64,000 nt of DNA from Lingula anatina (Eukaryota; Animalia; Brachiopoda): the NCBI GenBank assembly GCA_051362555.1, contig CM120646.1, forward strand, positions 3,596,001-3,660,000, read 5' to 3'. The position numbers were made by a program, and so were the translations under genes. Below the pieces are notes generated by a model, which saw nothing but the letters and a program-made list of their open reading frames with translations, made no database searches and had not been told where the DNA came from. Below, piece after piece: positions 7,201-53,165 of this stretch (position 1 is the stretch's first letter; every line of letters starts with the position of its first letter).

Positions 7201-10200
7201 CTTTGCGGTACGTATTCCTAATAAATATTAATCAACATCACTTGTTTGCTATCAGCCATCGAGTTATGAAATGAATTTCTCTTTCGACAACTGTGGCCGT
7301 CTGCATATGTTGGTGAGCCACATTGTTGTAAGTTGTAGTGTTATGTGTCAATTGAAAACTGTCCATCGGAGCATTCAGTTGTAAAAGACAAGTTGCATGG
7401 TCTTTCCTATCATAGGTGCAAATAGACCATTGTGGATCTATTTAAAATTCCCCGAATAGAATCTGTGTAAAGAAATGACGTAATGTTTTTCTTGTGTAAC
7501 GAATACAAGTATCTTTATAGTTTGAAAAATGAAAAAACTAAACAGTACTTAGTTCTCGTGATTATTATTAAATGGTAAGCCTACAGTTTTATGTCAAAAT
7601 TCAGCTATATTTCTTTTCTTGAAAATCTTAAGTTTAAAAAGCCAGCTGAAGATATTTCAGATTGGAATAGAACGTTTCCTCATACGGAAGACATTCTAGT
7701 TATGAACTCGATTCATACTCTTCCAGATCAAAGTTTAATTACTTCCACAGTGTCAAGTTCCCCGTCCACTACTCCTACTTCTACAATGACCAGGCCACCC
7801 CCAATAATCGTGACAGTGTCAAAATCTCCTGGAACCTCCTCAGAACACAGCAGTACGAGCTTTAGGAAGCCAACAAAGGTTCTCATACCCACGCAGGACC
7901 TCTGGCCCAGTACAGGTACGGACTCCACGCCAGGATTATCTGGTCAGACTACGGCAAGAGGAACCCCAGGAACGAATTCTACTGTAAAGGCACCTGCAAC
8001 TCCAACCTTAAGACCGACGCCAATACTGACGCCAATGCCAACAGCACTGCGACCTAGTCCTACAGGGCTACGGCCGACGACTTGGCCCGGGCCGACGCCA
8101 TCTTCAACACCAATACCAAGACCTTCACTAATGCCGTCACGTACTGCAGAGCCAACGCCCACGCCACAAACTCCAAGAAGGCCTACCCCAACAAAAGGAC
8201 CGGGGCCACAGCCAACGCCCATGCCAGAAACTCCAAAAAGGCCTACTCCATCAGTGTTTCCGGGGCTAGAGCCAACGCCTTGGATACCGCCACGAACTGC
8301 AGGGCCAACGCCCATGCCAGAAACTCCAAAAAGGCCTACTCCATCAGTGTTTCCGGGGCTAGAGCCAACGCCTTGGATACCGCCACGTACTGTAAGGCCA
8401 ACGCCCATGCCAGCGACCACGCTATCGCCAACGCCATCGCCATCGCCACGTACTGCAGTACCAAGGCCAGGGACAGTTGTCACTCCTTCACCCAGTACTG
8501 TGACGCCGCAACCCAAACCACCCGACAAGACCCCCTCTTCGTGGACGGATGTCCCAACACGGTATGTGCCAGACCAAGGGTCTGGGGTAACCCATTTCAA
8601 TGTCAGCGTGACCTCCTCGTGGTCACCGAGTTTGCAAACGTCACCAACTACGTCAGCTACGACACACGAGGAGAAATATACGACAACCACCCTTGATGCA
8701 CGAGGCGAATGGACAACCGCAGGCGATAAGGGCCACTTGACATCACCTAGCGTGTGGTCAGCTGTGACTACCGCGGGCGAAACGGACGGTGTAACACCAA
8801 CGCTAATTCACCTGTCTTCAGATGTTACTATCTCCTTTTTGTCTAGAAATATAAGCGAAGAGCTCCTCTTCCTCTGTGAGTTTGATTTTCATCGCCCTTT
8901 CGATAGCAAGACGTGTGAATTGAAGGTAAGTGTATGTAGTGTATGTATAGTGTATGTTTGAATGGACACTTAAACAGAAGTTTATGTGCCGCTTGAAATT
9001 GGACATATGAACGCTTAAAATTTGTGAGGTCTTTTAACCCCTTACATACAGTCAAATTAACCTAACTTTTGCTGTCTGTTTGCACATGCAGCAGCAGTGT
9101 TTACCGCAAAGCTGGTCCCACCTACCTCGATCACTAAGCCACTTATCTTATCCTAAAAGATAAATGACATGGAACGTAAACCAATGAAACCTGCTCATGC
9201 ATGAACGGAATACCAAAGGTACTTCCTTATGGGGAATTCCCCTGGATTCTCCTCACATGTGACGTGTTTCTACTGGCTAGTACAGGTGCTGTCCTTAAAA
9301 CTGTCACGTGTTTTGTTTGCGGTTTGATAAATAAGCCGAGGCGTGTGCCTTGCTTAATGCTTTTCGACATCGTCTGGAGCACGCGCAAAGGCTTTTTTAG
9401 TCAAAGTAACTTACTGTTGAATCGAAAAATGTCACGATCGGTTTGATGCGGTGACAATAATGCAACCGTTTAGCAGAATAACATCACGGAATTTTCAGTA
9501 TATTTTTGTAATTTAAGCTACTGCCTTGCGTAGAAAGGAACCCGTCAAAGGACAGCGCGGTATCTAAGATAGAACAGGAACAAAACACACAACGAGATAC
9601 CATTTTGCAGTTCCGCTCCGACTACAAATTGTTTTGAAAACTTAACTTACACTGGTAGAAATGCACATCTAAATTGACTTCTTTACCGGACAAGCACTGC
9701 TGTTGAGTTAACGAGAATAAAGCGCAGCTTTGTCAATGGAAATGCCTGGGTCGTTAAGGAAGGTGGCGTGTGTTGTGTGAACCACCTGACGCTATACGTG
9801 TATGCAGAAAATCCGTTATCATGCCCACTGCGACAGATAACACGAACATGTATCAGTGACTGTTATTGATTCCCCCCACAGAAAAAAACTGCAGTATAAT
9901 GAAAGACTAACCAAACTTTTCTCTACCTTTTCTGACATACGCCATAACTCTGTAGGAATCTGGGAAAATTAAGTAGGCCTTAGCCCACACATAACGATGG
10001 TTTTCAAATTCCGCCCACCCTTCGGGCTCTACAATGTCATTAGGAATCAGCACGTTAAAAGTTAAACTGTCTTAAAAGACAGCTGACTGGCGGCAAAGTT
10101 CGACCTGGCTGTGGTAAAAATATTCATCAATTTTTATCAAAGAAAGGTATTTTGTATTTGTTTCTTTATATTCGTTCTCTATTTTAGTGGCTACGCCATG

Positions 10201-10629
10201 GACAGCGAATCAGCAAGATCAGCTCTCGCTTCCACGAGAATTTCTACAGCGGCAAAGGAAGGACCCGTTTTCTAAATGTCCTGAAAATCTCGCCACTGAA
10301 TAGGACGGACGTGGGGGAGTACGTGTGTGTGGCAAGCACGCAGACGGCGTCCAGTAATGTGTCAGTTGAGATAAGAGGTGAGAAAGATTGTGACTGCCTT
10401 GGTGTGTGCGTGTTTGAAGGAATTTATTTGATATTAGGGTTTTAAATTGATGTGCATGCCTTTGTGTGTGTTTGGATGCAAATCTTTTACACCACTGGTT
10501 CTTGACGTTCATTTAGACCTACCTTTTTGTTTATTTTTTGACAAATTATTCATCGTCAAGCCAACCATGTGTACATCTGAATTCCACTGTAGAATTTATT
10601 AAGGTGTTATTAATACCTACATTTTGGTG

Positions 10630-10665
<36 letters not shown>

Positions 10666-10994
10666 TATTTATTATTATTAATTTTTTTGTTGTTGTTGCA
10701 GAGCTCTTGGTATCTGAGCCACTTGGTACTAACGAACCTTTTCATATTGACAACCGTGCCGCCATAGCGACCATCACTGGCCTGGCGTTGTTGTTTGTGG
10801 TGACAGTGGTGGTTTTGCCTTGGGTCGTGTACCAGAAACGGTTTATCATAAAACTGAGAGCGAAGAGGTATTTTGGAAAGTACGAAGATACAGGTAAATT
10901 GTGTTAATTGTTTGCTTTTCTTTTAATACATTATTTTTTTTTCTGTACCTGTATTTAAATATATTTTCCTTGAGATTTTTCCGTGGATGTTTAT

Positions 10995-11026
<32 letters not shown>

Positions 11027-11313
11027 AACGCTGCTGTTTTTCATGACATGACATTATTTTAATTTTGTATTTTGCAGATGATAAGCTTTATGATGTATTC
11101 GTATCTTACTGCCCAGACTCGGTAGACGAAATATTCGTAGTTCGAACACTGGTTCCTAAACTGGAACAGACATATAATATGCGAGTGTGTGTTGACTACA
11201 AGGAGTTTTTGCCTGGAGAAGGTGGGTTTTCTGAAAATTGGATGGTCCGAGATCCTTACTGGAAAATTTTCTTTGAATGTTAAGTCACCTTCATCCTGCT
11301 CTCCTTCTGTCAT

Positions 11314-11349
<36 letters not shown>

Positions 11350-12027
11350 GTGCGCGCGCACACACATACTCGCACGTACGCTCGCGCATCTGTGCACATG
11401 AACTGACATAACTCGCATATTTAGTGCACCAATATTTCATTTTGCAATAATAATGGAAGACGTTAATATTAACATAAATGACTAGTTTCCGTTTATCTTA
11501 TAATGTTTTTCTTTCTTATTTTATTCATACTTTTAGTCCTAAGTGTCAGTGTTATAGAAGCCGTGGAATCAAGTCGAAGAACAATTCTCGTTCTCTCTCC
11601 GAGATTTATCGAGAACGGCTGGTGCAGATTTCACTTTCTTAGCGCGCAGTTGGAAATGCTTCAATCCAAGCACAGCATTATACCTTTGATATATGAGGAC
11701 ATAAGCAAAATAAGTTCCACAGACAAAGATCTCAGAAATATACTTAAGATCGCCAAACCAGTGCGGTGGCCATCTGAGAGAAGGCCTAGGACTGAAAACA
11801 ACTTCTGGGACCACTTGCATTTATTATTGCCAAAGAAACGAAAACCAGCGTCTGGTTTTAGGGTAAACTTTTCTCGATGGGTGTTTGCAAGCAATAAAGT
11901 GGATTATGTCAGTACAGATCTGAGTTATGACAATAGCAGGCCAAAATCGAGGTCCGAACGTTCAAACGGGGTCATAAGCCCGGCAGATTTTACGGACTTA
12001 AAACTCCACATAGAAGACATTGTTTGA
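3979..12027 (+). CDS. Single-pass Ig-TIR (IL-1R-like) receptor with N-terminal EMI-like domain and mucin-like stalk; 8 exons, 837 aa
   Basis: Exons 3979-4085, 5992-6090, 7116-7207, 7727-8925, 10188-10377, 10702-10893, 11078-11221, 11537-12027; all GT-AG and phase-compatible, 2514 nt in total. Signal peptide MRWFEIWLALCWVTVSLEKRTLA. EMI-like Cys pattern GGC...SCGIFGWGRC...KRCCENWTGELC. P/T/S-rich stalk. Ig domain LLFLC...LKWLRHG...LKISPLNRTDVGEYVCVAS. TM AAIATITGLALLFVVTVVVLPWVVY. TIR box1 YDVFVSY, box2 VCVDYKEFLPGE, SRRTILVLSPRF, box3 FWDHL. Confidence 0.9.
4166..4209. repeat. (CT)n microsatellite
   Basis: Direct observation; further (CT)n at about 10999-11025 and (CT)n(CA)n at about 11314-11350. 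Confidence 0.95.
5349..5563 (+). mobile_element. MITE family B (probably PIF/Harbinger-derived; CATTCCCA...TGGGAATG ends)
   Basis: Core ctccctggggg-ttcacgctaaattgcagtcagcc...ttagtaggcgggacagacgcttaagccggctaagctgac recurs at about 35130, 42259 (reverse) and 12230 (diverged); boundaries approximate. Confidence 0.7.
8212..8410 (+). repeat. Coding 93-bp tandem repeat (31 aa, PTPMPETPKRPTPSVFPGLEPTPWIPPRTAG) in the mucin stalk
   Basis: Near-identical units start at 8212 and 8305, with a partial third at 8398; degenerate PTP units lie upstream. Confidence 0.85.
9231..9242. promoter_or_regulatory. Perfect palindromic NF-kB (Rel) consensus site GGGGAATTCCCC in intron 4 of the TIR receptor gene
   Basis: Direct match to GGGRNWYYCC on both strands; a second kB-like site GGGATACCCC at 6841-6850 (intron 2). 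Function is not demonstrated. Confidence 0.4.
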
Positions 12028-12229: not shown

Positions 12230-12440
12230 TCTCACAGGATCGATCCATCTCCAAATGGTTTCTCATTAAATTGCTTTCCACTTAAGCGTCTTATATTTCT
12301 GGCACACCTACTGAAGCTGTTAAACGATAATTAATTATCCCCTCACAGCTTCAGTAGGCGTGACAGACATCTAAGCCGCTTAAGCGGAAAGCAATTTAGC
12401 GAGAACCCCCCTTGCAGATAGATCGATCCACAGTTAGTAC
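12230..12440 (+). mobile_element. Diverged MITE family B relative in the 3' UTR/flank of the TIR gene
   Basis: gatcgatccatc...taattatcccctcacagcttcagtaggcgtgacagacatctaagccg...gatagatcgatc. Confidence 0.55.
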
Positions 12441-13406
12441 GATAGGGTCAGCGAATGGACCCTTACAAAAAATCATTTCTATTTTTATTTTGGTTCAAAT
12501 TATACATAATTATTGGAAATTTATATTTAATATTAGTGAAGAAAGAAATTACTTATATGATTAGTCTTATTTATTTATTGCTTCTCTTCCTAATTAGGGT
12601 TTACGTGTGATGGGTATAAGGTAAAAGTAGCGTGCTGGCGGTCCTTAATACTTGCTATGAAAAGATTTGTGAAATGTAAAAAGTTCCTGAAGACGCCTAG
12701 TAAATATAAGTGAGAATGTGTTTACGTCTGAGGGATCAGCTTGCCGGCATTGGTTTGCGGAGTCATTTAGTTTCCTTTAAGACTAGCGCCTGTTATATTT
12801 ATTATTATTATTATTATAATTATTATTATTGTTGTTGTTGTTGTTGTTGTTGTTGCTTAGTCCACGGTAAATAATGGAAGTGTGTCTTCTGTTATAGCGA
12901 TATTTACTTTAACTTGAAGGGCTAACGAACACTATGGCAAATTACTAAATAAATACAGTAAATATGAAGAAAACTCAAAAAGAAAATAAACTGATTCCCC
13001 GACTTCGTGGAAACCTATCACTGGAACATTGATCCGTTTGATTAGTGAAGTAAAACAAAGGGTATTTACCTCCTGGTAAACCTTGCCGCTCGTCAACCAT
13101 CTTTGAAATCGCGCGTGATCTGGAAGCCGGCGCGAGAATTGAAATCGAATGGATGGCAGAATTTGAAAAACCACCGCTTAAAACGAGGGTAAAGGGCATT
13201 TTCATTGACCCATTGGTCCTCAAACGAATTATACCCCATCAACGAAGTGTTTACCTCTCTTAACCTTTGATAAGATATATATCTCATGTACGCAAACTTA
13301 TATCATATTGTGTAAGGATTAAAGTCCTAAACTGATGTAAATATAAAGATACCTGCCACATTGTTTGGCCAGATTATATCAGGCTGATAGGAACAGTGTA
13401 TAAGTC

Positions 13407-16400
13407 ATGATCATCCGTGAGTGTTCTCTAGGTAAGTTATCTCAATGTCCATTTATTACACAATTTATAGATGCAGCTCCTCCTCCTGTCAGAAACTAGG
13501 CCGTAATTCTGCAACTGATTGCATTTTCTTGTGTGATTTGTACTGTTTGTTTCTCCATTTAATTTAAAAGATATTGATTTACGGTTTCTCACTCAATTGC
13601 ATTTTCTTACGTGACATGCACAATTTGTTTCTCTATTTAATGTGTAAGATATTGGTTTTAGATTCCCTCACTCTTGAACTAAAAAGGCATTGAAATCCGT
13701 ACTGTTTCTAAAAACAAAAGGGTGAATAAAAAGTTTATTTGAAGATACAAGGTTAAATGGGCAGTGCTAAAAAAAACGAGGGTCATGGTAACAGAGCGTC
13801 CGCCCTCCATTAAATTCGTACAGGTTAGGGTTATCGTGACGTAGGTGGGTCATATCTAGGATGAAGTTTACATGTACAAATCAATGGTATCCCGTATCAC
13901 TAGGGGCTTTGGTACGTGACATGCTTCTAACGCGTAACTGCACCATTGTATTGTAGCGCTAGTACTGTTGGTTAGCGTCTGGGCGTTCCCCAAACCTCCT
14001 CGAACCATACCGCCCGCGAACCCCAGCGACCCTGGCCGTCTGCCGGATGGCATACAAAAACGAGTTCTCGTTCTAGGTAAGTTTTCAAAAGGAGTTTAAA
14101 AAGGAGTTAACTCAGAGCTATCTGCGAACCTATAGGCCTATCTCGATCGGTGCCTCTTATTAATGCATTTTGTACTGTATTTTTGATCCTGGAACTTACG
14201 TTTGTAACCTGATAAATTGTTCTCTCACTAGTTCCAGTATCAGATTTATATACATATTTGTCACTCTAATTCTACTGGATGACTGAATACATCCATTCAT
14301 TAGTAGAGCATGTTCATACCATACATCTATTTAATTTTTGTTACTGCAATCATAGGATCTATCTATTTCGTTTCATATCGTGTATGTTTTCATTATTGTT
14401 GAATAACAACGTTTTAAACGTATCTTACCCATATTTTATGAAGCACGATTTAAACTAAAGTGACGCAACCGCACCGTACAGGCTTTCTTATGGAATGAAC
14501 TATTTTTATACGCACTTTACCAAGGTGGGGGCTTAGCTGGCCTCTCAGCTGCACTAGAGCTCGCGGAACGTGGCTATGACGTCACAGTTAAGGAGAAGAG
14601 TGACGTGTTCGGCGGGAAATTGTTTACCAGAAGGGTCGACATTCCAGGGCTTGGAGCTTTTGACGTCGAGCATGGCTTTCATGGTAGGGGGCTGCAGGGA
14701 CTGGGCATTATTCAGCCCTCGGGTCGGCGTCAAATTAAATGTTTTTTAAAGGGTCCATAAAATAATTGTTCTCTAAATTCTTCAAAATGAAAAAGAAAAG
14801 TTTTGGGAGGGGTTGGGGGAGATTATTTGTGAAAGAAAATCAGATCAGGTTGAGGTAAGACAGAACACAGATTTGCTAACAAATTGCTATTCAGACGAAT
14901 CGTTCAGAAAACGACCTATACGGGCTTTCTAAGTTATCAAACGACTTATATTTTTCATTAAATATGCGTTATTCATTAATCCTTGGAAAAAATCTTTATA
15001 AGTGGACTAATCAATATGTTCCTCTCAAGACCCTATTCTACATAGTTTTGTTTTAAAATACATTTTTTCTCAGTTCACATTCTCATTTCACAATCTATTT
15101 ATAATTTGCCATTCCGTAGCATGGTTCTTTAATTACCATCAATTCAAAGACATTCGCCAGCGTCTGAAAATCGACAACAATTTTCGGGTATGGAAGGCCG
15201 TCCACTACATCTTCTTGGACTACAAGCCGGAGACGATTTACAGCGAGGGACCTTATCCGCTCAACCTTTTAGGTAAGCTAGAGACCACAGTTTCTATATA
15301 TAAAATAATGTTAATCAAAAATTTAGCTTTTTAACACACGTAACTATTGTATGAAAAAAAAAAGAAAGAGAGAGGGGCGTATCCGTTAGCTAGAAACTAG
15401 TGAACATTAGGATGGGGCGTATACGTTCAACCAACTTAAACCCAACGAATGGAGTGGGGGCATTTTCGTTTAAGCTACTGGTGTGGGTGAGCTTAAACCA
15501 AATGGAATTTGGGATGGGGCATATTCGTTCAACCCATGGGTAGGCTAGAGACTATCGGACTTATGGAGAGGGCATATCCGAAACTAGGGACACTGAAGTT
15601 CTAAAGACCAGGGCACACTATTTCCTTCACTTTTTCTACTAAAATACTCATTGTCACTCATTGACTGGGTCAAAGAAATTATGCGTAATATTCAGCCCTT
15701 GTGTTACAATCCCAACTTTAGATCTTGTGTTACACGGGACTCAGAGTATTAATGAGACCTTGGACATAAATTCGTTATTATGTCCAAGATGAGGCCCTGA
15801 AGTTTTGTTACATCAGCCTGACACCATTGTGTCCAACGGACACCAAATGACCTTTCAGGTAACCATCTTGCCCTGGATTGTATGCACCAGTGTCCTCATC
15901 TCTTATGACAAAGGAAGCAGTCGTCACTTTATCAGGTTCAGTAAATAGATCCACTTAAATTGGTCGGGGCGTAGTCTAGAGGTGTCGTCAAACAAGGCCG
16001 ACTGCCTTTCATCTTGTTATCAAGGGCCTTTAATCAGATTGTCAAGGTCTCAAATGACTTGACGCCACGTGACTAAGGGCTCATTCCCAACGAAACTATC
16101 GTTCCACATAGATCGATCCGACATATCGGGGATTTTTGCTTATTATTATTATTATAGATGTGATGATTTTGCTGCTCCTCTCCTGTAGTAAGTGGTATAC
16201 CATTATCCTCAATGCCCTACTATGCTGTACTTCAATCACATACTAAAGGTTTCAAGACACAATGCTTAATTATTGAATTATTTATATTTTGATATGATAT
16301 AACAATATGAGCGAATTTGAATTAAATATAATATATGGCCAATGAAAAAATATATGGATACTAGTGGCAATACTAGCAACTAAATAATTAACTAATACGG

Positions 16401-19400
16401 TTGGGTGTTCGAAATAAGAAAGATTAAGCTTTGACCAATAGCAGCCTGTGTTTCATTTAATGCTGAAAATGATAAGGTTATTTCCATTCTTTTGATTAAT
16501 CTTAAAGCACGTAGTGCCTTTATTTATTATATCATTCTAGGCATTATCAGTAGGAGCCCCAATATCAAACTGACGGACGCTATTCTCTCCAGTCTAATGT
16601 TGCCAGATCTGGATTTTTTCGACTACGACACAGTGTATCAAAAGTAAGTACTGAAAGTTAAGTCTGCATCCGGGTCTTTGTAAGAAAATTGATTCATTAA
16701 TCTTTTATAGACAACGGCTTTGTTTAAAACATTAGGGCACTGTCTGTTTTTATTATCAATTTATAATTTATCACATTGGCATTTATTGTACCTGTAGACT
16801 GGAAGGTTTTTGACAAAGTTATTGGATTAGCGATTTTAGCACCATTACACTGTCTCGTCTTGTACATATGCTGTTGCATAAAGTAACTTTTGCCTCAAAA
16901 TGTGATGATGATTTTGTCTTTTGACCAAAGTGACACAAAAAGGATATTTTCCAAGAATAATATACGCAAACAAATAAGATACCCACATGACGAAAAATGA
17001 TCTGTGGAATAATAACAATAATATCATTGTTTTTAAGGTATGATAACATAACATTTGACCAGTGGGCCACCATGCGTGGCGTGCAACGAGATCTGAACGA
17101 TATTCTCCTTCGTCCCGCCCTCTCTGTGACCTTGAACGAACCCAGGGCCATCAGTGCAGCTGAGATGCTCATGTAATTATACTTATATGATTTATGATTA
17201 TAACTTAAAGAATGCTTAATAAAACGGAAAACTAACTTTAAAATAACAATATTGGGTTTGAAGTTTTGGTGTATAGAGGGTTTGATTAAAAATAAATAAT
17301 GCCCCGACTGAACTTCAAAAGTGATGTATACATGTATGCTTTATACCGGAACACGTATCTCAAATTATTCGCTATGGTTTATAGTTTATTGTTGACATTT
17401 AATACCTCTGGCACCTCTGGTGTTTAATAAAAGTAATGTTCAAAAAGGCATATATTTTTGATACTAGGAATATTTTACCTGTTTCCCCGTTTCAATTAAG
17501 ACCAATCTAGTAAGTGGAGAGGGGGCGCAATATTTCCTATTAAATTAATACAGGTAAAATTTAGTGTAATTTGTGCTCCATAGATGAATAAATTATCAGA
17601 TTTGAAGCATATTTTAACATAGGTACATGCAGCTCTATTTCCTGACCAATGCGGAGGCTGACCACCGCGAGGTGACCATATACAGCTTTGGGAAAGCCAT
17701 CCTGCAGCCCTGGCTTGATCGGCTGTCCGAGCTCCATGTGAAGTAATTAATTTTTTTATAAAAAATGTTTGTAAGAACAGGCCCGTAGCCAAGGGGGTTC
17801 GAAAGAACCACCCCTTTTGCTGGGAAAAGGTCCACTCTGGGTAAAATATAATCGAGGTACATGAAGTTTTTTTATGGAAAAAGGTCCACTTTTTCAGAAA
17901 AAAAAAAAACCTTTTGAAATTGCTGGCTACGGGCCTGTAAGAATCTGAACAGCGCATGGGTAAGGTACTATTTTACATTATAGTGTGAGCAGGGGACTAT
18001 CAATAATAATAATAATAAGATTCTTATATGGCGCCTTACATTCTATCTCAAGGCGCCTTACAATAATGGCTAATATACTAAAATCATTAAAATGACTACA
18101 ATATTTTAATCATAAACTCTCATTGGAAACCATTTAAAATTTACACTACTAAAAATCAATCTTATTAAAAAACATATATATATTTAAATAAAATCTAAGA
18201 GACATAGACAGAATTAAAAATGTCAATTAGTTTAAATAAATCTTGCGTGAAATTTCGAATAAAATGTTTTACACCATTGATAATCCAGACACAAAAATCA
18301 TTAATTTATATTTAACGCGCAATGAATAGGAATACAGTTCTTTGCAATATTATGTTAACATGAAAGACCGTCAGTCTACAGCTGTACACGTGTTCCTATT
18401 CTAACAGGTTGCATTCCAACTATTCAGTTGAGCGTCTAACCATAAGTGACCAAGGACAGGTGACCGGTGATAGCAAGGACGCTGTCGTGTATGATCACGT
18501 GGTTTCAGCGATGGACATCGTGGGCACGCAAAGCGTTCTGAATGCGACTTTGTCTTATTACGGCAATAAACCCATAATAACGGATAGTCTGTCTAAACTA
18601 TGGAGTAAAGTGTCTCGCATGAAGTTAGCCCCACCTTATAAGGTAGGCACAGTTAACGTTCTCTACAATTATGCAATTACAGACTTCTTTTGAAAAGGTA
18701 ACATTTTGGCGATTACTTCATTCAAATACATATCTTCTAAAAAGCTCGTCTGATATCATCGTTTTCTGATGAAGCATTGTCAGTTGTACACGTTAAGCGG
18801 ACACTCAAACGCCTGATGATTCAAATACAAAGTGAATACTGCTTTTAAAATTTATATTCACACATAAAGGATACTTATTTCAGACCTAATTTATCAGAAA
18901 GAAAAAAGAGAGCAAACCTGATTATATTTTTGCACCCCTTTCCGCCAGGTTCTCCGTGTTTGGTTCGACAAGCAGCTCAACGCGTCCACACCAGATATTC
19001 TCGAGACTCCCCAACACACCCCAGTCAACCTCGTGGCGCAGTACCACCGCCTGGAACAAGAGGCCAGCGCCTGGGCCAACAAGACCGGTGGTTCTGTACT
19101 GGAATTCCACCTTTACAAATGGGCGCACGGCGACGTTACAGACGATCAAGTGTGGACAATAATTTCTCCCACGGTGAAGCTGATTTATCCAGAGATTTTC
19201 GAAAGGATGTTCAATATTTTAGGCTACCATGTCAACTCGTTTGAGAACTTTTCATCTTTTGAACTCAACTTGCAGATGTTCCGGCCTAATTCGTCCTTCC
19301 CAATGGAATGTGGTCTGCCAAATTTGCATCTTGCCGGTGATTGGTTAAAAACGGCGTATCCTTCCGCGTTGATGGAGAGGGCGGTGTCAACAGGCCGAGA

Positions 19401-19485
19401 GGCAGCCAACCAGATTTTACTATCTGATCGCGTGAAACAAGTAGAGCTCATCGTGACATCTTCTAAGGGTCCAGGAATACTGTAA
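13407..19485 (+). CDS. CrtU-like (isorenieratene synthase / carotenoid phi-ring synthase family) FAD-dependent oxidoreductase with signal peptide; 9 exons, 528 aa
   Basis: Exons 13407-13431, 13957-14076, 14525-14683, 15120-15272, 16541-16643, 17038-17172, 17623-17742, 18408-18642, 18949-19485; all GT-AG and in phase, 1587 nt. Rossmann motif RVLVLGGGLAGLSAALELAERG...EK...GGK, then VEHGFHAWFFNY, SAAEML, APPYKVLRVWFD, WANKTGGSVLEFHLY and LAGDWLKTAYPSALMERAVSTGREAAN; I recognise these as CrtU-family motifs from memory. The 25-nt first exon is the least certain. Confidence 0.88.
17778..17937 (-). mobile_element. MITE family A copy in intron 7 of the CrtU-like gene, with 6-bp TSD TAAGAA
   Basis: taagaa|caggcccgtagcc ... 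ggctacgggcctg|taagaa; reverse orientation relative to the 3010 copy. Confidence 0.85.
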
Positions 19486-22400
19486 AATCACCATCAACAT
19501 TTAACATCTATATTCAGTTTGATTACAAATTAATTTGCTGCAAATGCACTATTGCATTTATATAATTCAGACAATTAGTTTAACACAGAAAAACTGGCTA
19601 GTTTCATTGAGCTCCATATTTGGCCACTTCTATGATCAGCGTACGACCAAACTGACATTTCCATGAAATTAATTAATTAATCTTGGTCGAATTGTTTGGC
19701 ATATTACCGTAAATTTTATTTCAATTCAAATTCTAATTTGAAATCTGGACGCAGATATGTAATTAATTTAAAAAAATATTTTCACTTGTACAACTTGCAA
19801 CTGATTTTAATGGGTCGAACTGGCTAACGGGTGGAAGGTAAGAGAATGCACCCTGGTAGCATTTTATGATAATCTGAATGTACAATCAACTGCTTTCAGT
19901 TTAAAGACATACATGTACAGCGTAGATAGTTATATTACTTTAAAATATATATTTGACATGCAGGGAGTGATACTTAGAACCCTGGAGTGGTAAAAAAAGA
20001 CGATATTTACTTCAACATTATCTAAACACTATTAACATGTTCTTTCTGGATTAAAACGTTTGCAGTCCTTCACATTGAGGCATTACTCGGATTTATTATT
20101 AAAATAACACAATCTGATTTTTTTGTAAGTGCATGGAATGAACTTGTTACTTGAGTGGCAATCCAGGTTCATCGCCAATACACTGACATACATGTAAATA
20201 ATTTAATTATTAAAATTTGCTTAAGTCTGGATACACCGCCTGTTGTCTAAAATTGAAGATTCCAATTCATATTTTCAATACCTTGATGTACCATACTCTC
20301 AAAATGACCAAGGGAAAAAAGAGCACATGGGTCATATATCACATCAAAATTTCTAGATTGATCACTATTATTTACATTTCAACTTTTTGTCACATTCTTC
20401 TATCTGACCTTTTTCTTGCTTGTAAATATCACAAGGACACTGCTTGTTGCTCTTTCTGCCAATCTTTTAACCTGTCCAAGTGCCTTTTGATCTTGACAGT
20501 TCAGAAACACAAATTTTGATTAGTAATTGCCTCAATCTTTTAATTACCATCAATTTAGAAATAATATTTCCATCATTTGCTAATTTCAATATTCTGTAAG
20601 TATTTCCCATTTCCTCTATTTGATATCAACTTTTTCATGTTCTTCACACTTGACGGTTCAAATGTTGTGCAACTTATGCAATTAAGTGCACATTGCTTGT
20701 TGCTACTCCTGTACAAGTCCTAGCAAGTCCTTTAATCTGTCCAAGTGCAAGCTGATCCTCAGTCCTTGTACACTGAAAGTAGTAAGCAATATTCTAAAAT
20801 GTGCAGTCACTATTGATTGAGTAACAATTTTTCTTTCTCTTTGAAACTAAGAGAAAAACTTGAAAAGGCATTTTGCCTATGTACAGCATACAATATTACA
20901 CAATTTATACACCAAATTGCTGTTTTATTTTTCAGTCTGTGTATTTAATATGTTATCAGAAATTTATATTGTACTGTATGAAAAATAAGAAACAAGAAGA
21001 GAAAGTTTTAAAAAATCTAACTTCTATCAACTAGAAGAATCTAGGAATTTCTAAAAAGTATCCAACTTTTATAATCCAGAAAAATCCAAGGATTTCTGGG
21101 AAGAATCTAACTTCTATGAGCCTCTCTTTACAGAACTTACACAAGATAAGAAAAGGAAAATTGGTAATTAAACTAATAAAATCAAGAGAAACGTTGGCAA
21201 CTGACTGAATTGAAAATGGCAATGACAAAAGAAAAATAAATATAAGACAACTAAGTAGGACACTTACTCCATGATTCCATGACAATTCTTGCAAGGGACT
21301 CTACTTGCCTTCAAGGTGTAAGGTGACACACCACCTACAAGAGCCACCCATCACCACTCCAATCTGTTCCAATTCATCTAAAATCTCTGGTTTCAACCTC
21401 CATCTCTCTTCTCCTGGGGGTTTCTTGACTGACCCCTCTTTTTGTTAGCAACAGGGACTGTATTGCACAGTTCACCTTGTGGAGTTTGCTTGAACATTTC
21501 TGCAAGTATACCACTACATGTCACAGGCACAGTCCCAATCCAGGCACATCCTAAATGCACCAATCCCAATTTGGCATAATACACTTACTGTTAAAAGCAG
21601 CACAACCCTATATTTTAACTAATTTACAGGTAAGAAAATGGTTACCAGTGATTTGGAGTTTAATTTTTAGTAAGACCTGATTGCCATATAATTTGATCAA
21701 AGAAAGCAAATGAAATGGAATATTCCATTTAAACTATTAGTAAATTCAATGCTGCTTTGTATATATGCCATTGCAAAGGACACCAACGCAAACTGGCCTC
21801 TGACCTAGTGTAAATGAGTCTCTAACCTGTAAAATAGTAACATGCACCTTACTTATAAACTTCTGCTTTTAAAAATGCATTATGCTCAATAATACATGTA
21901 TATGAATCTGCCTGAATTAGGATTGAGCCTGCGATATGTATTCACTCGTGGAAGGGAACCTTGTTACATAATATGATAAACTTTGAATATTAAAATGTTT
22001 TTTTTTCTCTTGTATTTATATACATTTGAAATGCCACTGAAAACATGAACATTTTTATGCCATTTTTTCATATAGTATTTTAAAACAATTTTTAATTAAT
22101 ATTACACAACAGCTGCAGCCATGTCATCAACAGAAATGAGGATACATATGAAATACCCCAAAATTTATTTAAACTTTCAACAGAAGACAGCATTAGTTTC
22201 ATACAAATAAACAACTGGCAGCAGTCAGAAATTCTTGAGAAACGGATATATATCTGTTATCTGGATGGGCCTTAATGTAGACATGGAAAGAAATTAAATT
22301 ATTCACATAAAGTAACTGTAGAGCATTAAGAAGAATGTTGGACAACTACACATGAGATCTATTCAGGCCTACAACAAGAGTCCCCCTCCTATAGTTCAAA

Positions 22401-25127: not shown

Positions 25128-26086
25128 AATAGAGTCTTTTCCACGAAATCGTGAGCATGCGCAGTTCGCGCCATTTTGTGCGGGACTGTTTCTCAGGGGG
25201 AAAGAGTAGAAGGGGCCTTCGGTACTTTTGTAGTATACCCCCCCCACCCTGTAACTTTCTGTAACTTTCACTTTTCAAACAGTTTTTTACATTTTATTGT
25301 TTATCTATGTCAAAGCTGTTGAAATAAAATGCTTTTGTAATTACCTGTGGACTTTTTATTAGTGTTAATCACGTTTAATCCAGCCCATTGAAATACAAAG
25401 TTAGAATCTTCAATTTACACTCGCAGTCAATAACTTGCCGCATTTTCGTTGGCTAACCCTAAGATAATTTTATGTGAACAAGTAGCTCATAATAATTTCA
25501 CAGAGGAAATCCAAGTATACAATGTATCAATCCTATGTTCACATAAAATAAGGTACATGTAGAGTTAGCCAACGAAAACGCAGCAAGCTGCGGTTACATT
25601 GTAAATTTTCACATTGTTTTTCAATGGGGTGGATTAAACGTGATTAAAACTAATAAAAAAGACCACAGGTAATTACAAAAACATTTTATTTCAACAGCTT
25701 TGACATAGGTGCAAAAGACACTGTAAAAAAATGTTTGAAAAATGAAAGTTTCAGGAAGTTACAGGGTGGGGGGGGGGGGTATACTACAAAAGTACCGAAT
25801 GTCCTATCTTTGCTGTCGATGAGGTACGTTTTTAGTTCTTTCATTGAAAAGTCATCAGGTACTTCTGCTAAATTTCTATTCCAACTGCTCCCATGAATGT
25901 TTTCGAAAAAAATCAGGTATTAACATGTTACGAAACTTTGAAAATTCAGATTGAAATGAGCACTCCTCGATATGGCGTCCGTCGTGTACACTCCACACTT
26001 TCCCCCTGAAACTTCAAATCCCGCAAAATCTCGCGTTCCCACGGATAATTTAGCGGAAGTCACGTGACCGTGGAAAAGACTCTATT
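25128..26086. mobile_element. Non-autonomous TIR element containing an internal ~580-bp fold-back palindrome (25218-25799)
   Basis: Outer perfect inverted repeat aatagagtcttttccacg / cgtggaaaagactctatt. Inner arms ttcggtacttttgtagtatacccc... / ...ggggtatactacaaaagtaccgaa pair imperfectly over about 240 bp. Confidence 0.8.
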
Positions 26087-46619: not shown

Positions 46620-47575
46620 CATTCTTAAATAGCTACGTGCAAGTCTTGTTTGCATTTTTTCCTTAGTCTTTCTGCAATCTTGACTGCTTTGCCATTCGCT
46701 TGGCTATGGTATGGAGAGCTTGTTTTATATTCAAAACCCCATTCTTTTGAAAATTTCTCATAATCTTGACTGATAAACTGTGGTCCATTAACCGAAATGA
46801 CTTCTTCCGGAATACCATGTCTTGCAAAGTGAGCTTTAGTACTAGTAGCTTCAATTACCGTGCTACTTGTCCTCCAGCTTATCTAATTAAAATAAGTCAC
46901 TAAAATAGTCAACAGTTACTAAATAGTTCTCTCCTCGCAAAGTAAACAAATCTTGGCCTACTTTGCTCCAGGACAAAGCATCTGACTGCGTTCTTTGCTG
47001 TATCTGCCTATCCGTAGGATGTGGCAGAGACACGTGCTCCTTCTGTTTAATGTTTTCTATGTCCTCACACAACTTGTCTTCCTCAGACATTTGGAATATG
47101 TAACATCTTGGAACTTATTTTTACTTCAATTTAGCGCTCGGCGGGGCATATGCTCTTGACAGCATATCTGCTATGTGCATTTTTGATCCAGGTAAGTATT
47201 TCAAATTCAAATTATATTTCTGCAAACGCATCAGCATTCTCTGTAATCTCTTTGGTGGGTGTTGAGTGAATTGCTTTTTTGAATATGGAAATTAATGGCT
47301 TATGATCAGTTTTCACATTTATAACTTCACGACCATGCAAATATATGTTGGTCAAATCGCTCTTTTTCTATTTCTGCATATCCTTGCTCTGTTTGTGACA
47401 ATGCTCGTGACGCAAATGCCACAGGCGTTTCTCAATTCCTGAAGTAGCGTCATCCCAACTCCTTTCTCTGATGCATCGCACTGCACTGTGACTGGTTTTT
47501 GAATGTCATAATACTGAACCACAGGTGCTTGTGTCATGGCCTCTACTATGTATCCAGTCATGTTGATCTAAACCA
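46620..47575 (-). mobile_element. Degenerate Ty3/Gypsy LTR-retrotransposon pol fragment (RNase H and integrase)
   Basis: VTVQCDASEKGVGMTLLQ; TDHKPLISIFKK; PKRLQRMLMRLQKYNLNLKYLPGSKMHIADMLSRA; WSKVGQDLFTLRGENYLVTVDYFS; frameshifts and deletions throughout. Confidence 0.9.
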
Positions 47576-47857
47576 TATTTCTTCAGTTTTTGTCACTATC
47601 AAATACTCGGTATAGGGGGCGCGAAACTGAGGGTCTGTGTGACAGAAAGTCCGTCCTCCATATAGTTATAATGGTTCTGGTTACTTTGATCTGAGTGGGT
47701 CAAAATCTAGGGCGAGGCTCACCTGTACAAATAAATGGGAAGCGGACTCTACATGTATGTCATGGGGGACCTTCTGGTACATAAACAATATAATTGTTTT
47801 GAATCTTACAGACATCCGTTTCTAAACTGCCATTTGGCTGTTTTCTTTGAGCAAATG

Positions 47858-50800
47858 TCAAACTTCCTCTACCGAAAAATCTTCATCAACTTGTACACCA
47901 AGTCTATTCAAACGCGTCACTTCCATCTTTGCCAACATTTCGTTTTTCGTCGATCCTTTGACCTCACCAGCCACCCTGTAAAGCTTTGCCAGTTCCTTGT
48001 ATACTGTCAACGGCATTTTAGATTTTGGGAATTGCTCATGAACCTGAGGAGTTAATTCAGCAGCTTCTTGCAAGTTGGACCGACTTTGTTCATATAGATT
48101 TCGATATTGATCACAGCGTAGAGCCCCTTGGCGCGGTCTACCAGTCGCCTTGGGCATTGTGTTTTGTTCATTCGTGGACAAATTACTATCATGATGTTCA
48201 AATGCTTGTTCACATTTATTGCTGTTATTTTCAGTAACCACAGTCTGTCCATTTGGTGCCACGTTTTCTTGGTCAACTCGTTGAGCCACTGCCTCGTATA
48301 TTTGCTCAGCCTGTGCCTGTCCTAAATGAAGCAGGTGCTCAACCAATGTGAAATGAATAGGTGTATGTTCTCTACGGATGTCAACAGCTTTCTGAAAATA
48401 ATCCACAGCTTCAGGAAACTCTTTTTTCTTCATACAAACAAGTCCAAAGTCATCATAAATGAGAGCTATATCTGTCGTCTTTCCAATCTTCTGACACATA
48501 GAAAAAGCATCTTGCAGCATAGACATAGCTCTGTCAAAATTCCCCGTTTTGACATAGAGCATTGCTGTATTACTTAGAGAGTAAACGATGGACAGGTTGG
48601 CTTGTTTCATACATCTTCGTTTGCATCTAAGACCACATTCGAAGTTCTTCAGTGCATTATCATCCTCTCCCAACTCGCGATATGTCAGACCCATATTGTT
48701 GTAGACAGCCCCAATGGAAGGATGATGCTCTCCAAAGTTAGATATGCGTAAGTCAAGGGTATCCTCAAAATATTTTATGGCTTTTTCTTTCTCTCCTGCA
48801 ATTACCATGAATAAGGGCAATGTTGATACCATTATTGGTTTTTGCACAAAGGCGCATGAGTTAACTAATACAGGTAGTGGCACACTGCCAATGACGTATT
48901 ACGTATACACTTACAGCTTGCGAAATAGCTTAATTTCCTAAGAAAATTGACTCTTTTCAATTTCAGCCGTTCTTCAGTTTATTTGCTCCTTAAATAGATC
49001 ACGCTCCTATTTTAAAACGACGAAGATTTCGTAACGTGATAACCTCACTCACCCATTATAGAAAAGACGAGGCCCTGGGTCGAAAGGGTTTGACTCATAA
49101 GAAGGCTTGCTTGCATACCCCCCTCTTCTTCCAGTTTGTATGCTTTCTGAAGGTACCTGTCATTATAATATAACCTCTACTCAAAGATTCATAGTCCAAA
49201 ATATATGAGAGTCGGGATTCACATGGCAGGTCTCTTTAGAAACTGTTTGACACTGATATCTTTTAACAGGAGAAAATAAAAGATGCATATTTCTCTTTAG
49301 AATGTGTTTGGTGCAAAACCTTTAATTCATCTTTAAGACTTACCTCTGTGACTTATTCAGGTGGCCATATTTGTAGTAGTTCCAACCCAGATGCTGGTAC
49401 AGAGAGGCCATGTCTACAGGAGTACCCTTGAGGGAAAGAATTACCCTCGCCTTCTCATAATAATCTATGCCTTTTTGTATATCACCCTGAAATATGCATA
49501 GCAACTGTCATATAGACACACGTGCACAAATGAAACCACTTTACACAAAACTGAAAAAGAAAAAATGAGCAAATGACCTTAAATCATAAATGAAGTAATA
49601 ACATTAGAGCCAATAAGTTGCAATCTTTAAATAGGCATACCCAACGGATCCAATGTTAAAAGAAACGGTGCGTCTTCTTTTATAAATATAGAAAGTCATG
49701 CAAATCGTATACCTTTCAATAATTATTTATGTACCTCAATATTGGTCACTGCCTGTGCGTATGCTGATAGCATAAGTCCATGATGTCTGTGGTCAGCACC
49801 GTCAAACATTCTAGACTGCTCCATCATGTCTTCGTAAAAGCCAATGCTTTCTTCTGCAAAAATAGCTAGTCCGTTAACGTGATTGAGAAATATGTTTTAT
49901 AGATACTGGGCCTATATTATATATTTGATATTTTTGAACAACCGTCTTGTTAAAATGTGTTTACTTTGTACAGTATCATCTTGCCCGACCGTGCCTCCGT
50001 TATTAACGGGTACTTTCCCAATAGATTAATTTTTACCGACAAAATAATAATCTTCATTGGTTCTCGGACATTTTACATTTCTAATGTACATTTTCAGCTA
50101 CCCACATAAATATATACACACGCTGCAAAGAATGAAGCATTTTACATTATACAGAAAGCAAAGTAATACATGCACATGCAAAATGTTAAAAAAATTGAAA
50201 TATGCAGATCTACAAAGACAAACTCTAGTATACTTGTTAGTTTTTCAATAAAGAAAAAATAAATAATAAAAATAATTCAATAACATACTTTGGAAGAAAC
50301 TAATGATAGGGTATTCTGCCAGCACAGCCACTTTGATAAAACTTTTGTAGCTGTCTTCATTACAATGCATCGCCTGTGTGAGCAGCTTCTCCAAGTTCTT
50401 CCATTCCACGTCCATGGTGGCAGTGGCAAACATTGAGTTCTTGGACAGCATTTGGTTATTAACACACTGAAGAATATCTGCGAAAAACTTACTATAACGG
50501 AGCCTCACCACTGAAAATAACACAATATTGTTGATTTTATAATGAGAAAATTCTTAGAAGATATGGTACAATCCGCTAAATTTTAATTTCATTTGGATGA
50601 ATTCCTTAAATAGTTTCAGTGTATCGCAGCTTAAATTATCAACAAATTAGGGCATTCAGCCTATATTTTTGCTTTATGTTTTCTCTCTCATTTGTTATTT
50701 TTAGTAAAATATTCAAGAAATGAATACACGCCTAAAATAGAAATTTCAAAAGGGGGTTGTCTTGGTTGAATCGTCGGGGGTGGGGGTAGGGAAAGAATTG

Positions 50801-51992
50801 TCTTGGGAGAGAATTGTCCATTGGATGGGTAGTCTTACGGGGACATTGTCCAGGAGAATTGAGTCAGAATCGGTACACGCATTGCCTCGTGAAATTTACC
50901 TGTGTGTAGTAACTTTAAGCACCTACCAGGTAATTCCTTTAACGGTACGTGCTTTTCCAAGTATTCTCTTCTCAGAGATTGGATGTCGTATCTCATCCTG
51001 TGTCTTTGTGCCATGGACAATCCTGTTGATTCTTCCTGTATCATGGACACTCTTAATAGTTCTTTCACGACTTGACCGCCACCAGTTTCCTGCTTGAAGC
51101 CTATGATATATTTTCAGATTTGGCAATTTTATAATAATTCCGGCATACTTGTAGGAATGGACATTTGTACTATTTGTCCTCATATTGCTTTTGGGGGGGG
51201 GGGGGGGGGGGGGGGGGGCAAAACTTGTGGACTAATGAAAACTTCATCCCCTTACTTTATTAGAAACAAGTACAATTTTAACCTTGAACGTGTGCAGAAG
51301 CTACAGACTGTAACATATGAAATGCACGAGGATATCAATATATTGACATATTTCCTTTGAAAACAGCCGGATCTATATGTAATTCATCTTACTAGTCATT
51401 TTACTCAAAAATATACTGCCATTTGACCAGTACTTCACTAAATAGCAATGTCACAGCGAATATAAAATATAATGTTGTTTAAAGTTGTCTTCTTTCTTCA
51501 GTCCCAGACTACTACATACATTGGACAGAATCTCAAAGACTCAAGCATGCTATCCTTACCCAAAACTGCAGCAACGGCCTCTTTGCTGAAATGACCAGGG
51601 ATATAACCAATGGCCGCTAAGTGCTGTCTGAAAACGTCAGTCAGTCGTGCAAGGTGGTTTCTAATCACTTTATCTGAAAAAAAAAAAAAAAAAAAAAAAA
51701 ACGTGGGAAAGAGAAACTAATGAAATGCGTCTTACTTTGGTCTTTTTTATTTTTACTTAGTTAAACTGTTCTCGTGTGATTTTTCCGAGAGAATCATTAA
51801 TAAAAAACAAAAACTTATCACATTTTTTCTATTTGGTCACTTGTCCACATTTTCTTTAACTTAACATATTTTTAAAAAGTGACCAAAACTTCAAGAGAGT
51901 CAAAGTAACTCGACAAGGGGAAATCGTTATCTCAGTATAGGCTTGAAAAGATTTTTCGAAAAAAAATGTTATTGTAGGCCTATATCTGCCTT

Positions 51993-52033
<41 letters not shown>

Positions 52034-53165
52034 TCAAAGTATTTCACAGTATGACAATATTTCTACCTAAACATTTATTTTCCATAGTAAACCTACCTAT
52101 TCTCTCAGAGTCAGAGAAACTCTCGTCACTGAGAGCTTTCAGCCGTTCTTCCTTCATGAGGTCCAACATTTCACTTGGGCTCAGATTACCATCACGTAGA
52201 ATGCTCCCTGGGAAAATTCGAGGTATATATTCTCAAGAAAATATTTAAACAAAATGAAAAAAATATTATTTGATAGATAAATAAGTAATGGTTAGAAAGT
52301 AAATAATACCCAGTCTCTTTTTGTCTAGAAAATTCGAGGTGTTCTCAAGATAATACTTCAACACATTAAATGGATGAATGGACAAATACATAACGACAAT
52401 AAAGTTTAAAAATCCACTTTCGTAATTGTGTAACATATAACTTCCCGGAAATGTATATAAATTCGACTTACCTACAATGATTAGAGCAAGGGGCAATCTT
52501 GCACATTGTTCTGCAAGTTGAGTTAAAGTATTATCATCTATAAATGGACCTTCATTTTCTGCATCGGAGTGAGGAAAAGTGTCAAGCAATAAGGCTTTTG
52601 CGTCCGAAACACAAAGTGGCATTAAACTCTGTTCAAAATATACTCTATTCAGTCTTGCGAACTGAAACTTGGTGCGAGAAACGATGAAGATCCTCACATC
52701 AGGGCACTGGTTTATGACGTCAAACACAAACGTGAGCAGCACATTCTGCAGGTTATGACTGACGTTTCTCGTAGTTGCCTCAGACACGGCAATGTGTTCG
52801 CATTTTTCAAAAATTAACACACAGGGAGCAATATTTTTTAAATGTGCGATGCTTTGTTGCTGCAGCAGCTCAGGGGTTGAATCGTCGGTAAGCAAAGGCA
52901 CTTTGTCTTCTAATAATTCGAGAGCAACGTACTTAAAGAAGTCTTTTGCACTGTTTACACTTTGCATCGACACGAACATAGTGCATAGGTCACCATTATA
53001 CGCCTTTGCAGACACCTGTCTCAAAATCTCCCGCGTTAAGCTTGCCTTACCAATGCCGGGAGGGCCATAGATACCAAATATCCGATGCTGTGTCCAAGTA
53101 TCTGTTATAAGTTTTATTTCCTTTTCTCGGCCGAAGAAAGTAGGGTGTTCTAAATGGAACGCCAT
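47858..53165 (-). CDS. NB-ARC/STAND NTPase-TPR (NLR-like) protein; 9 coding exons, 872 aa
   Basis: Exons 53165-52472, 52207-52097, 51673-51560, 51100-50927, 50510-50289, 49853-49735, 49486-49344, 49156-49053, 48795-47858; all GT-AG and in phase, 2619 nt. FFGREKEI; P-loop GIYGPPGIGKAS; Walker-B position VLIFEKCE; sensor IVSR; GLPL-like CARLPLAL; winged helix VKELLRVSMI...RYDIQSL; kinesin-light-chain-type TPRs (HPSIGAVYNNMGLTY). The start could extend via an upstream exon (acceptor at 53209). Confidence 0.88.

Follow-up and report, generated by a model that had tools for sequence, protein, structure and literature searches.

A CrtU/CruE-lineage flavoenzyme with a predicted secretory leader in Lingula anatina: likely an old eukaryotic enzyme rather than a brachiopod invention

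The 64,000-nucleotide stretch of the Lingula anatina (Brachiopoda) genome analyzed here (GenBank assembly GCA_051362555.1, contig CM120646.1, positions 3,596,001 to 3,660,000 of the forward strand; hereafter the window, whose own coordinates are used below) carries at 13407-19485 (+) a gene for a CrtU-like flavin adenine dinucleotide (FAD)-binding protein with an N-terminal leader. The gene is single-copy within the window and has nine exons, with all introns GT-AG, that encode a protein of 528 aa:

13342..13347 (+): candidate TATAAA box, 65 nt upstream of the ATG, by motif only
13407..13431 (+): coding exon 1 of 25 nt, which encodes residues 1-8 (the leader's n-region and the beginning of its h-region); the same in RefSeq XP_013399612.2
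13957..14076 (+): exon 2, in which the leader runs on to 13985 (cleavage predicted behind A18) and is followed by the conserved arm FPKPP..I.P.NP at the mature N-terminus and by the first Rossmann strand
14279..14381 (+): alternative first exon of RefSeq XP_013419238.1, end approximate; no leader, Rossmann strand broken, likely a mis-model
14525..14683 (+): exon 3, GGLAG FAD motif, GG motif and EHGFH
15120..15272 (+): exon 4, residues 102-152
16541..16643 (+): exon 5, residues 153-187, helices aligning to a helical stretch of phytoene desaturase (PDS), with a putative membrane-contact role
17038..17172 (+): exon 6, sequon N190 and CrtU-type E229
17623..17742 (+): exon 7, Y237 (opposite the R of rice PDS ALNRFL, which we take to be Arg300) and family-specific R247 and W262
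18408..18642 (+): exon 8, sequons N276 and N317; RNA reads show it joined to exon 9
18949..19485 (+): exon 9 and stop, R353, W392, E402-x-H404-x-Y406, AGDW, LMERA and GPG tail; sequons N361, N394, N450 and N464

Exon 1 is in phase 1, ends at a gtaagt donor and is preceded by an in-frame stop two codons 5' of the ATG. Spliced to exon 2, it gives MIIRECSLALVLLVSVWA-FPKPP..., with RVLVLG|GGLAG next, spanning the exon 2/3 junction. Under a rule-based n/h/c reading, the leader has R4 in the n-region, a hydrophobic core that is the highest 11-residue Kyte-Doolittle window of the protein (2.77), and V16 and A18 at positions -3 and -1; by these rules, and because orthologues conserve it, the leader marks a secretory-pathway protein. 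No transmembrane helix was found: leaving aside the leader and the FAD-binding beta1-alphaA unit, no 19-residue window scores above 1.04. The C-terminus is GPGIL, without KDEL. The seven sequons (N190, N276, N317, N361, N394, N450 and N464) compare with 2.7 +/- 1.5 in shuffled sequences, at least seven occurring in 1.3% of 5000 shuffles (p=0.013 for Lingula). A preliminary description made from the DNA alone had placed a signal-peptide-like leader, encoded by exons 1-2, ahead of the Rossmann fold and had listed seven sequons, no transmembrane segment and no KDEL; the gene model bears this out, and XP_013399612.2 agrees on the leader.

XP_013399612.2 (528 aa; P0142 in our set) is identical to the gene model at 523 of 528 positions, with the same leader and all seven sequons, and RefSeq records of Lingula anatina match the last exon at 99%. 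RefSeq holds two near-identical Lingula loci for the gene (LOC106165797 and LOC106179957), which are haplotigs or recent duplicates. A second record, XP_013419238.1 (P0001), begins at window 14279 in intron 2 and lacks the leader, and it raises the question whether the leader is a modeling artefact and the true protein a cytosolic one that starts at this alternative exon. RNA reads could be taken in the same sense: in 8 of 9 same-species raw-read runs, of each of which 6-26% was read, expression was low and 3'-biased; the exon 8-9 joint appeared in three runs, all of one study, and the exon 1-2 joint in none of these eight low-depth runs. Thus the 5' exon rests on the sequence, the RefSeq model and the orthologues. 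Moreover, one eukaryotic member, from Saitoella (P0148), has no leader. Several observations nonetheless make a cytosolic product very improbable: i) the intron 2 start deletes the first Rossmann strand and the conserved N-terminal arm; ii) XP_013399612.2 has the leader, as do orthologues; iii) exon 2 itself holds most of the h-region, and, as far back as the nearest upstream stop, it is preceded by no in-frame ATG. XP_013419238.1 is likely mis-modelled. RNA depth near 13750-14220, 16000-16120, 17780-18150 and 19640-19710, which comes mostly or possibly from repeats, was disregarded. Elements resembling miniature inverted-repeat transposable elements, self-complementary or dispersed, lie at 12237-12429, 17778-17937 and 25218-25799; the one in intron 7 recurs at ~3010, 43914 and 45732 and draws most of the RNA reads.

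The mature protein has the PDS-like FAD-binding amine-oxidase fold (Pfam PF01593), with GxGxxG and GG motifs present. The preliminary description had proposed a structural comparison with PDS. The AlphaFold2 model of P0142 (pLDDT 94.5) proved closest in the Protein Data Bank to rice PDS (5mog; Z 38.7, root-mean-square deviation 2.1 over 443 residues), the next match being at 27.4, and a model of the Amphiura homologue gave the same ranking. Atlas models from the actinobacterial and the Chlorobiota/Cyanobacteriota Rieske clusters match at TM-scores of 0.87-0.91. Rice PDS and the related ZDS are thus the closest solved fold; they differ in identity (21%), in plastid targeting and in lacking the CrtU polar set, the Arg of PDS being replaced by Y237 in Lingula.

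This ranking bears on another proposal of the preliminary description, a secreted defence oxidase. Mollusc L-amino acid oxidases (LAAOs) are a family of H2O2-making defence oxidases, and a comparable role for the Lingula protein would fit its membership of the same Pfam family, its cleavable leader, its seven sequons, and the immune-type neighbours in the window (TIR and STAND/TPR exons, below). Its fold, however, is far closer to PDS than to LAAO, MAO, PPO or renalase, which all match at Z 27.4 or less. In profile searches PDS aligned over the full length (42-510; E 5e-36), whereas LAAO/MAO matches (E 1e-13) were partial and mainly covered the FAD-binding start. Furthermore, the clade to which the protein belongs retains CrtU residues and reaches into algae, fungi and amoebae, and PDS is described as a monotopic FAD enzyme reoxidized by quinones and not by O2 (PMC5703498). 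A defence oxidase is therefore improbable.

Named full-length homologues occur in echinoderms, hemichordates, a chiton, a nemertean and a rotifer, where the database label "carotenoid phi-ring synthase-like" was given on similarity only, and outside animals in Vitrella, Nannochloropsis, Acrasis, Quaeritorhiza, Amoeboaphelidium and Saitoella. Among 20 named full-length eukaryotic sequences judged by eye (two truncated Anneissia models having been dropped), a hydrophobic leader heads 14/14 animal and 5/6 other proteins, Saitoella being the exception. The leader read from these sequences is not particular to Lingula and is common to its eukaryotic clade, and its conservation in 19/20 of them strengthens the earlier suggestion of entry into the secretory pathway. 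Some of the leaders look cleavable, and those of sea urchin, Saccoglossus and Nannochloropsis look like uncleaved anchors. As either form would place the catalytic domain in the lumen, "lumenal, lipid-associated" is a safer description than "freely secreted". The algal leaders were not taken as plastid-targeting, since in Vitrella the mature motif directly follows the leader.

The sequons turned out to be weaker evidence than the preliminary description had claimed. Observed-to-expected ratios were 1.43 for eukaryotes, 1.18 for members with twin-arginine translocation (Tat) leaders and 2.09 for the archaeal-type members; N450 is commoner in prokaryotic (50/62 and 12/12) than in eukaryotic members (5/43), and N190 is also present in a third of the Tat members. 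N394, found in 18/43 eukaryotic and 1/62 Tat members, is the only sequon that looks both eukaryote-specific and widely shared, and the sequons as a whole contribute little.

Among prokaryotes the nearest relatives are largely exported as well. The family was taken as 161 sequences with 38% identity or more across 480 or more aligned columns. A script found a twin-arginine motif in 62, a hydrophobic Sec-like leader in 45 and neither in 54; the last comprise an archaeal-type branch, truncated calls, a branch with a long N-terminus and a few script misses, and the counts include some near-duplicate cluster members and two miscalls (P0003 and P0034). Many of the Tat leaders end in A-x-A immediately before an F/R-P-x-P-P arm, which is where the mature Lingula protein starts. 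Of 16 Tat-type leaders of the family, 11 gave a match to the Tat model TIGR01409 (7 above cutoff); one of two cyanobacterial CruE-type leaders matched it below cutoff, and none of nine leaderless controls did. The family was present in 3/301 genomes of a Myxococcota sample; a GTDB scan, its results swamped by the generic GxGxxG pattern, gave no close member, only CrtU/ZDS/HpnE-type references.

Leaders of this kind extend beyond the family. Rieske-type CrtU/CruE homologues also start with twin-arginine leaders (L154:7425-9371, L157:7425-9356; P0155, P0157 and P0159-P0162), and in Synechococcus A1248/crtU is enriched by lumen-targeted APEX2 (log2 5.88) and absent from cytoplasmic controls (PMC7880944). 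The preliminary statement that bacterial CrtU is intracellular thus stands for the actinobacterial type, whose proteins are leaderless, and is doubtful for the rest. The twin-arginine leaders suggest that ring aromatization may often take place on the outer or lumenal (periplasmic) membrane face, cyanobacteria and Chlorobi included, an arrangement for which we found no statement in print.

Three further features of the prokaryotic relatives were observed. An open reading frame of ~165 aa, Pfam-less and lipoprotein-like, directly follows the Tat-type gene at five loci (L084, L085, L087, L089 and L110) and is a possible partner; three of its positions are:

L084:10007-10498
L085:9860-10348
L087:9066-9560

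A RoxA-like cytochrome c protein is encoded convergently beside the Tat-type gene at four loci of one bacterial group (e.g., L088:9123-10814 and L091:1532-3235); RoxA cleaves polyisoprene extracellularly, so this neighbour may hint, by analogy, at extracytoplasmic isoprenoid processing. Finally, some CrtU-type proteins are fused to an N-terminal membrane domain resembling lycopene cyclase (L006, L131 and L132; P0174, P0177 and P0178).

In quick LG+C20 trees of 61 rows (L011 being left out of the mixture tree), the family formed one clade of 37 rows, with 100 support in the Shimodaira-Hasegawa-like approximate likelihood-ratio test (SH-aLRT), apart from Rieske and non-Rieske CrtU. It sits with these two in an unresolved fork, not inside characterised CrtU or CruE, and the ZDS- and HpnE-type rows lie further out, beyond CrtU and the family clade. 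Within the prokaryotic family all eukaryotes form one clade (19 rows, SH-aLRT 100) and all animals another (11 rows, SH-aLRT 99), in which Lingula groups with Brachionus and one further sequence (SH-aLRT 96); other trees gave similar results. An approximately unbiased (AU) test on 36 rows rejected a joint clade of eukaryotes and non-Rieske, leaderless CrtU (p=2.75e-5).

These results bear on the history of the leader. The preliminary description saw an intracellular bacterial CrtU re-targeted to the secretory pathway, which in its plainest form means a recent transfer followed by re-targeting in the brachiopod or animal lineage. The patchy named distribution among animals and the leaderless state of actinobacterial CrtU would suit such a transfer. 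On the other hand, the gene has eight introns, animals are one clade within a wider leader-bearing eukaryotic clade, and the nearest prokaryotic relatives form a separate family that largely carries Tat leaders; with the AU rejection, the recent transfer is largely refuted and we regard it as exceedingly improbable. Because leaders occur clade-wide and an origin from leaderless CrtU is rejected, the leader was likely gained early and once, at the base of the eukaryotic clade, and not in Lingula or the brachiopods. The eukaryotic ancestor would most likely have swapped a Tat leader, which exports a folded, FAD-loaded protein, for a Sec leader, possibly by way of a leaderless stage.

As to function, the preliminary description had linked the protein to carotenoid chemistry, and residues and gene neighbourhoods both support this. 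The Lingula protein shares eleven columns with Rieske CrtU/CruE and actinobacterial CrtU and not with ZDS-type or HpnE-type rows (R64, S158, E229, R353, W392, G397, H404, Y406, L491, N504 and G524); the outgroups in this comparison were small (three ZDS-type and five HpnE-type rows), and three rows that at first bore a eukaryotic label (P0036, P0045 and P0198) were removed from that group after the tree. Actinobacterial CrtU, the beta-carotene desaturase/methyltransferase or isorenieratene synthase, is represented here by crt-cluster homologues assigned by context, such as L002 (Brevibacterium) and L004 (Mycobacterium). It shares with the Lingula protein the PF01593 fold without a Rieske domain (Atlas TM-score ~0.88-0.89), E229, Y237, R353, W392, E402-x-H404-x-Y406, LMERA and N504, and differs in lacking a leader, in forming a separate clade and in substitutions at W103, H108, Q235, R247 and N377. 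Cyanobacterial CruE and Chlorobi CrtU have the same polar signature and N-terminal export-type leaders; they differ in the Rieske insert (~640-650 aa against 528 in Lingula), in a Tat instead of a Sec leader, and in an identity of ~28-35% in local alignments. No PF00355 match was found in P0142, whereas the 644-651 aa cyanobacterial matches have one.

At the genomic level, crtB, crtI-like, lycopene cyclase or crtZ-like genes stand beside 8 of 9 leaderless archaeal-type loci of the family, compared with a carotenoid cluster at 14 of 17 control loci. The archaeal-type context matches the heliorhodopsin-carotenoid cluster of Thermoprofundales (PMC9585477). The "CrtU" of that cluster likely represents the leaderless archaeal branch of the family (40-45% identity, same neighbours, and a named Thermoplasmatota record, P0328); it differs from the Lingula protein in being leaderless, clustered with biosynthesis genes and, in the text consulted, named by annotation only.

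From the PDS-type fold, the CrtU-type residues and the crt clusters of the archaeal-type members we infer a carotenoid beta-ring dehydrogenase. Our preferred reading, which we hold to be somewhat probable, is an ancient FAD dehydrogenase of the CrtU/CruE lineage, lumenal or secreted and docking on lipid, that acts on dietary carotenoid beta-rings. The leader would direct the protein into the endoplasmic reticulum by signal recognition particle- and Sec-dependent import, followed by cleavage after A18, FAD loading and N-glycosylation. The enzyme might then dock on a lipid surface (a lumenal membrane leaflet, a lipoprotein or a gut micelle) by helices near residues 149-188, as monotopic plant PDS does. 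Hydride would pass from the ring to FAD at a putative CrtU-type polar site made of E229, R353, E402, H404 and Y406. Since a Rieske domain is lacking, a quinone or other lipid-phase acceptor is proposed to reoxidize the flavin. The reaction may stop at ring desaturation or proceed to methyl migration and aromatization. The latter would make the protein a secretory carotenoid aromatase that arose from a bacterial enzyme exported by Tat, through a Tat-to-Sec swap, and that has been kept since early eukaryotes in invertebrate bilaterians and, here and there, in protists and fungi, where it would make aryl carotenoids from dietary beta-ring carotenoids; this stronger version we consider doubtful.

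Besides the missing exon 1-2 joint, a number of points weigh against assigning the protein to secretory carotenoid-ring chemistry: i) no NCBIfam model passes its curated cutoff, PDS scoring 54-69 bits (cutoff 569) and ZDS 54-68 (cutoff 622), both for P0001/P0002; ii) identity to actinobacterial CrtU-type proteins is only ~27-29%; iii) at CrtU-conserved sites the family has W103 for F, H108 for Y, R247 for F and N377 for D, and position 235 is Q in 70% of the eukaryotes as against H in 92-100% of prokaryotic members and CrtU; iv) a crt gene adjoins 0/19 Tat-leader loci, at 12 of which at least 9 kb of DNA was examined (crtB and crtI were present elsewhere in the genome in two of three Tat-type hosts of the Myxococcota sample); v) the tree figures come from quick searches, and the AU test on 36 rows does not reject a clade of eukaryotes and the leaderless archaeal-type branch (p=0.62); vi) the APEX2 set spans lumen and thylakoid membrane, which does not fix the side (PMC7880944); vii) among animals, PMC3093257 reports aryl carotenoids only in sponges, where PMC7395447 ascribes them to symbionts, and no sponge is among the named matches listed (best 120 of 215 and best 120 of 219).

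Some of these points would be explained if the enzyme had the same location and history and a different hydrophobic isoprenoid or lipid as substrate, such as a retinoid, a squalene-type compound, a prenylquinone or a prey-derived polyene. The Tat-leader genes outside crt clusters and the family- and eukaryote-specific changes at CrtU-conserved sites are as such a substrate would predict, and the best NCBIfam score in family members is that of HpnE (116-162 bits, 115.8 in P0142, against a cutoff of 283). A parallel exists in retinol saturase (RetSat), which belongs to the CrtI/CRTISO lineage and departed from its carotenoid-enzyme relatives. It is an animal flavoprotein of the endoplasmic reticulum with an N-terminal signal peptide and an isoprenoid substrate (PMC10784691), and with this precedent the secretory location alone is not unprecedented. 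RetSat differs from the Lingula protein in being a reductase, and it was not among the matches of the Lingula family. Against another substrate stand the retention of the CrtU-only polar residues, the crtZ-like and cyclase genes adjoining archaeal-type members nested in the family, and the position of HpnE-type rows outside the clade of CrtU and the family. We thus regard a non-carotenoid substrate as possible, though unlikely, and retain the beta-ring dehydrogenase.

Many modifications of dietary carotenoids occur in animals and, to our knowledge, few of the enzymes responsible are known. No account of the eukaryotic clade or of its leaders was found in the literature searched, with subscription papers mostly outside the search, which accords with the earlier remark that this biochemistry is undescribed. 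A CrtU/CruE-lineage enzyme with a predicted secretory leader is likely an old, unstudied animal route for modifying dietary carotenoids in the secretory pathway, not a Lingula invention, and it provides a candidate enzyme in brachiopods, nemerteans, chitons, rotifers, echinoderms and hemichordates, including Strongylocentrotus and Lytechinus. If ring aromatization were true, the view of aryl carotenoids as bacterial only, as found in PMC3093257 and PMC7395447, would change, with a bearing on biomarkers: pigments of the isorenieratene/renieratene type, at present attributed to bacteria and taken in geology as markers of sunlit water that was sulfidic, would also have a source in animals and other aerobic eukaryotes.

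Elsewhere in the window, the upstream neighbour at 7579-12027 (+) resembles a gene of the interleukin-1-receptor type:

7579-8961 (+): long exon, Pro/Thr-rich and mucin-like
10188-10445 (+): weak immunoglobulin match
10614-10907 (+): transmembrane-like segment
11482-12027 (+): TIR domain (Pfam E 4.7e-9)

Further downstream, at 47781-56684 (-), two TPR exons that are 84.5% identical over ~1 kb flank a STAND/NB-ARC-like NTPase exon (52266-53222); these are likely tandem immune-type NTPase-TPR genes. An integrase core (rve) fragment at 46628-46882 (-), with an E value of 2e-6 and below the Pfam cutoff, is a retroelement remnant.

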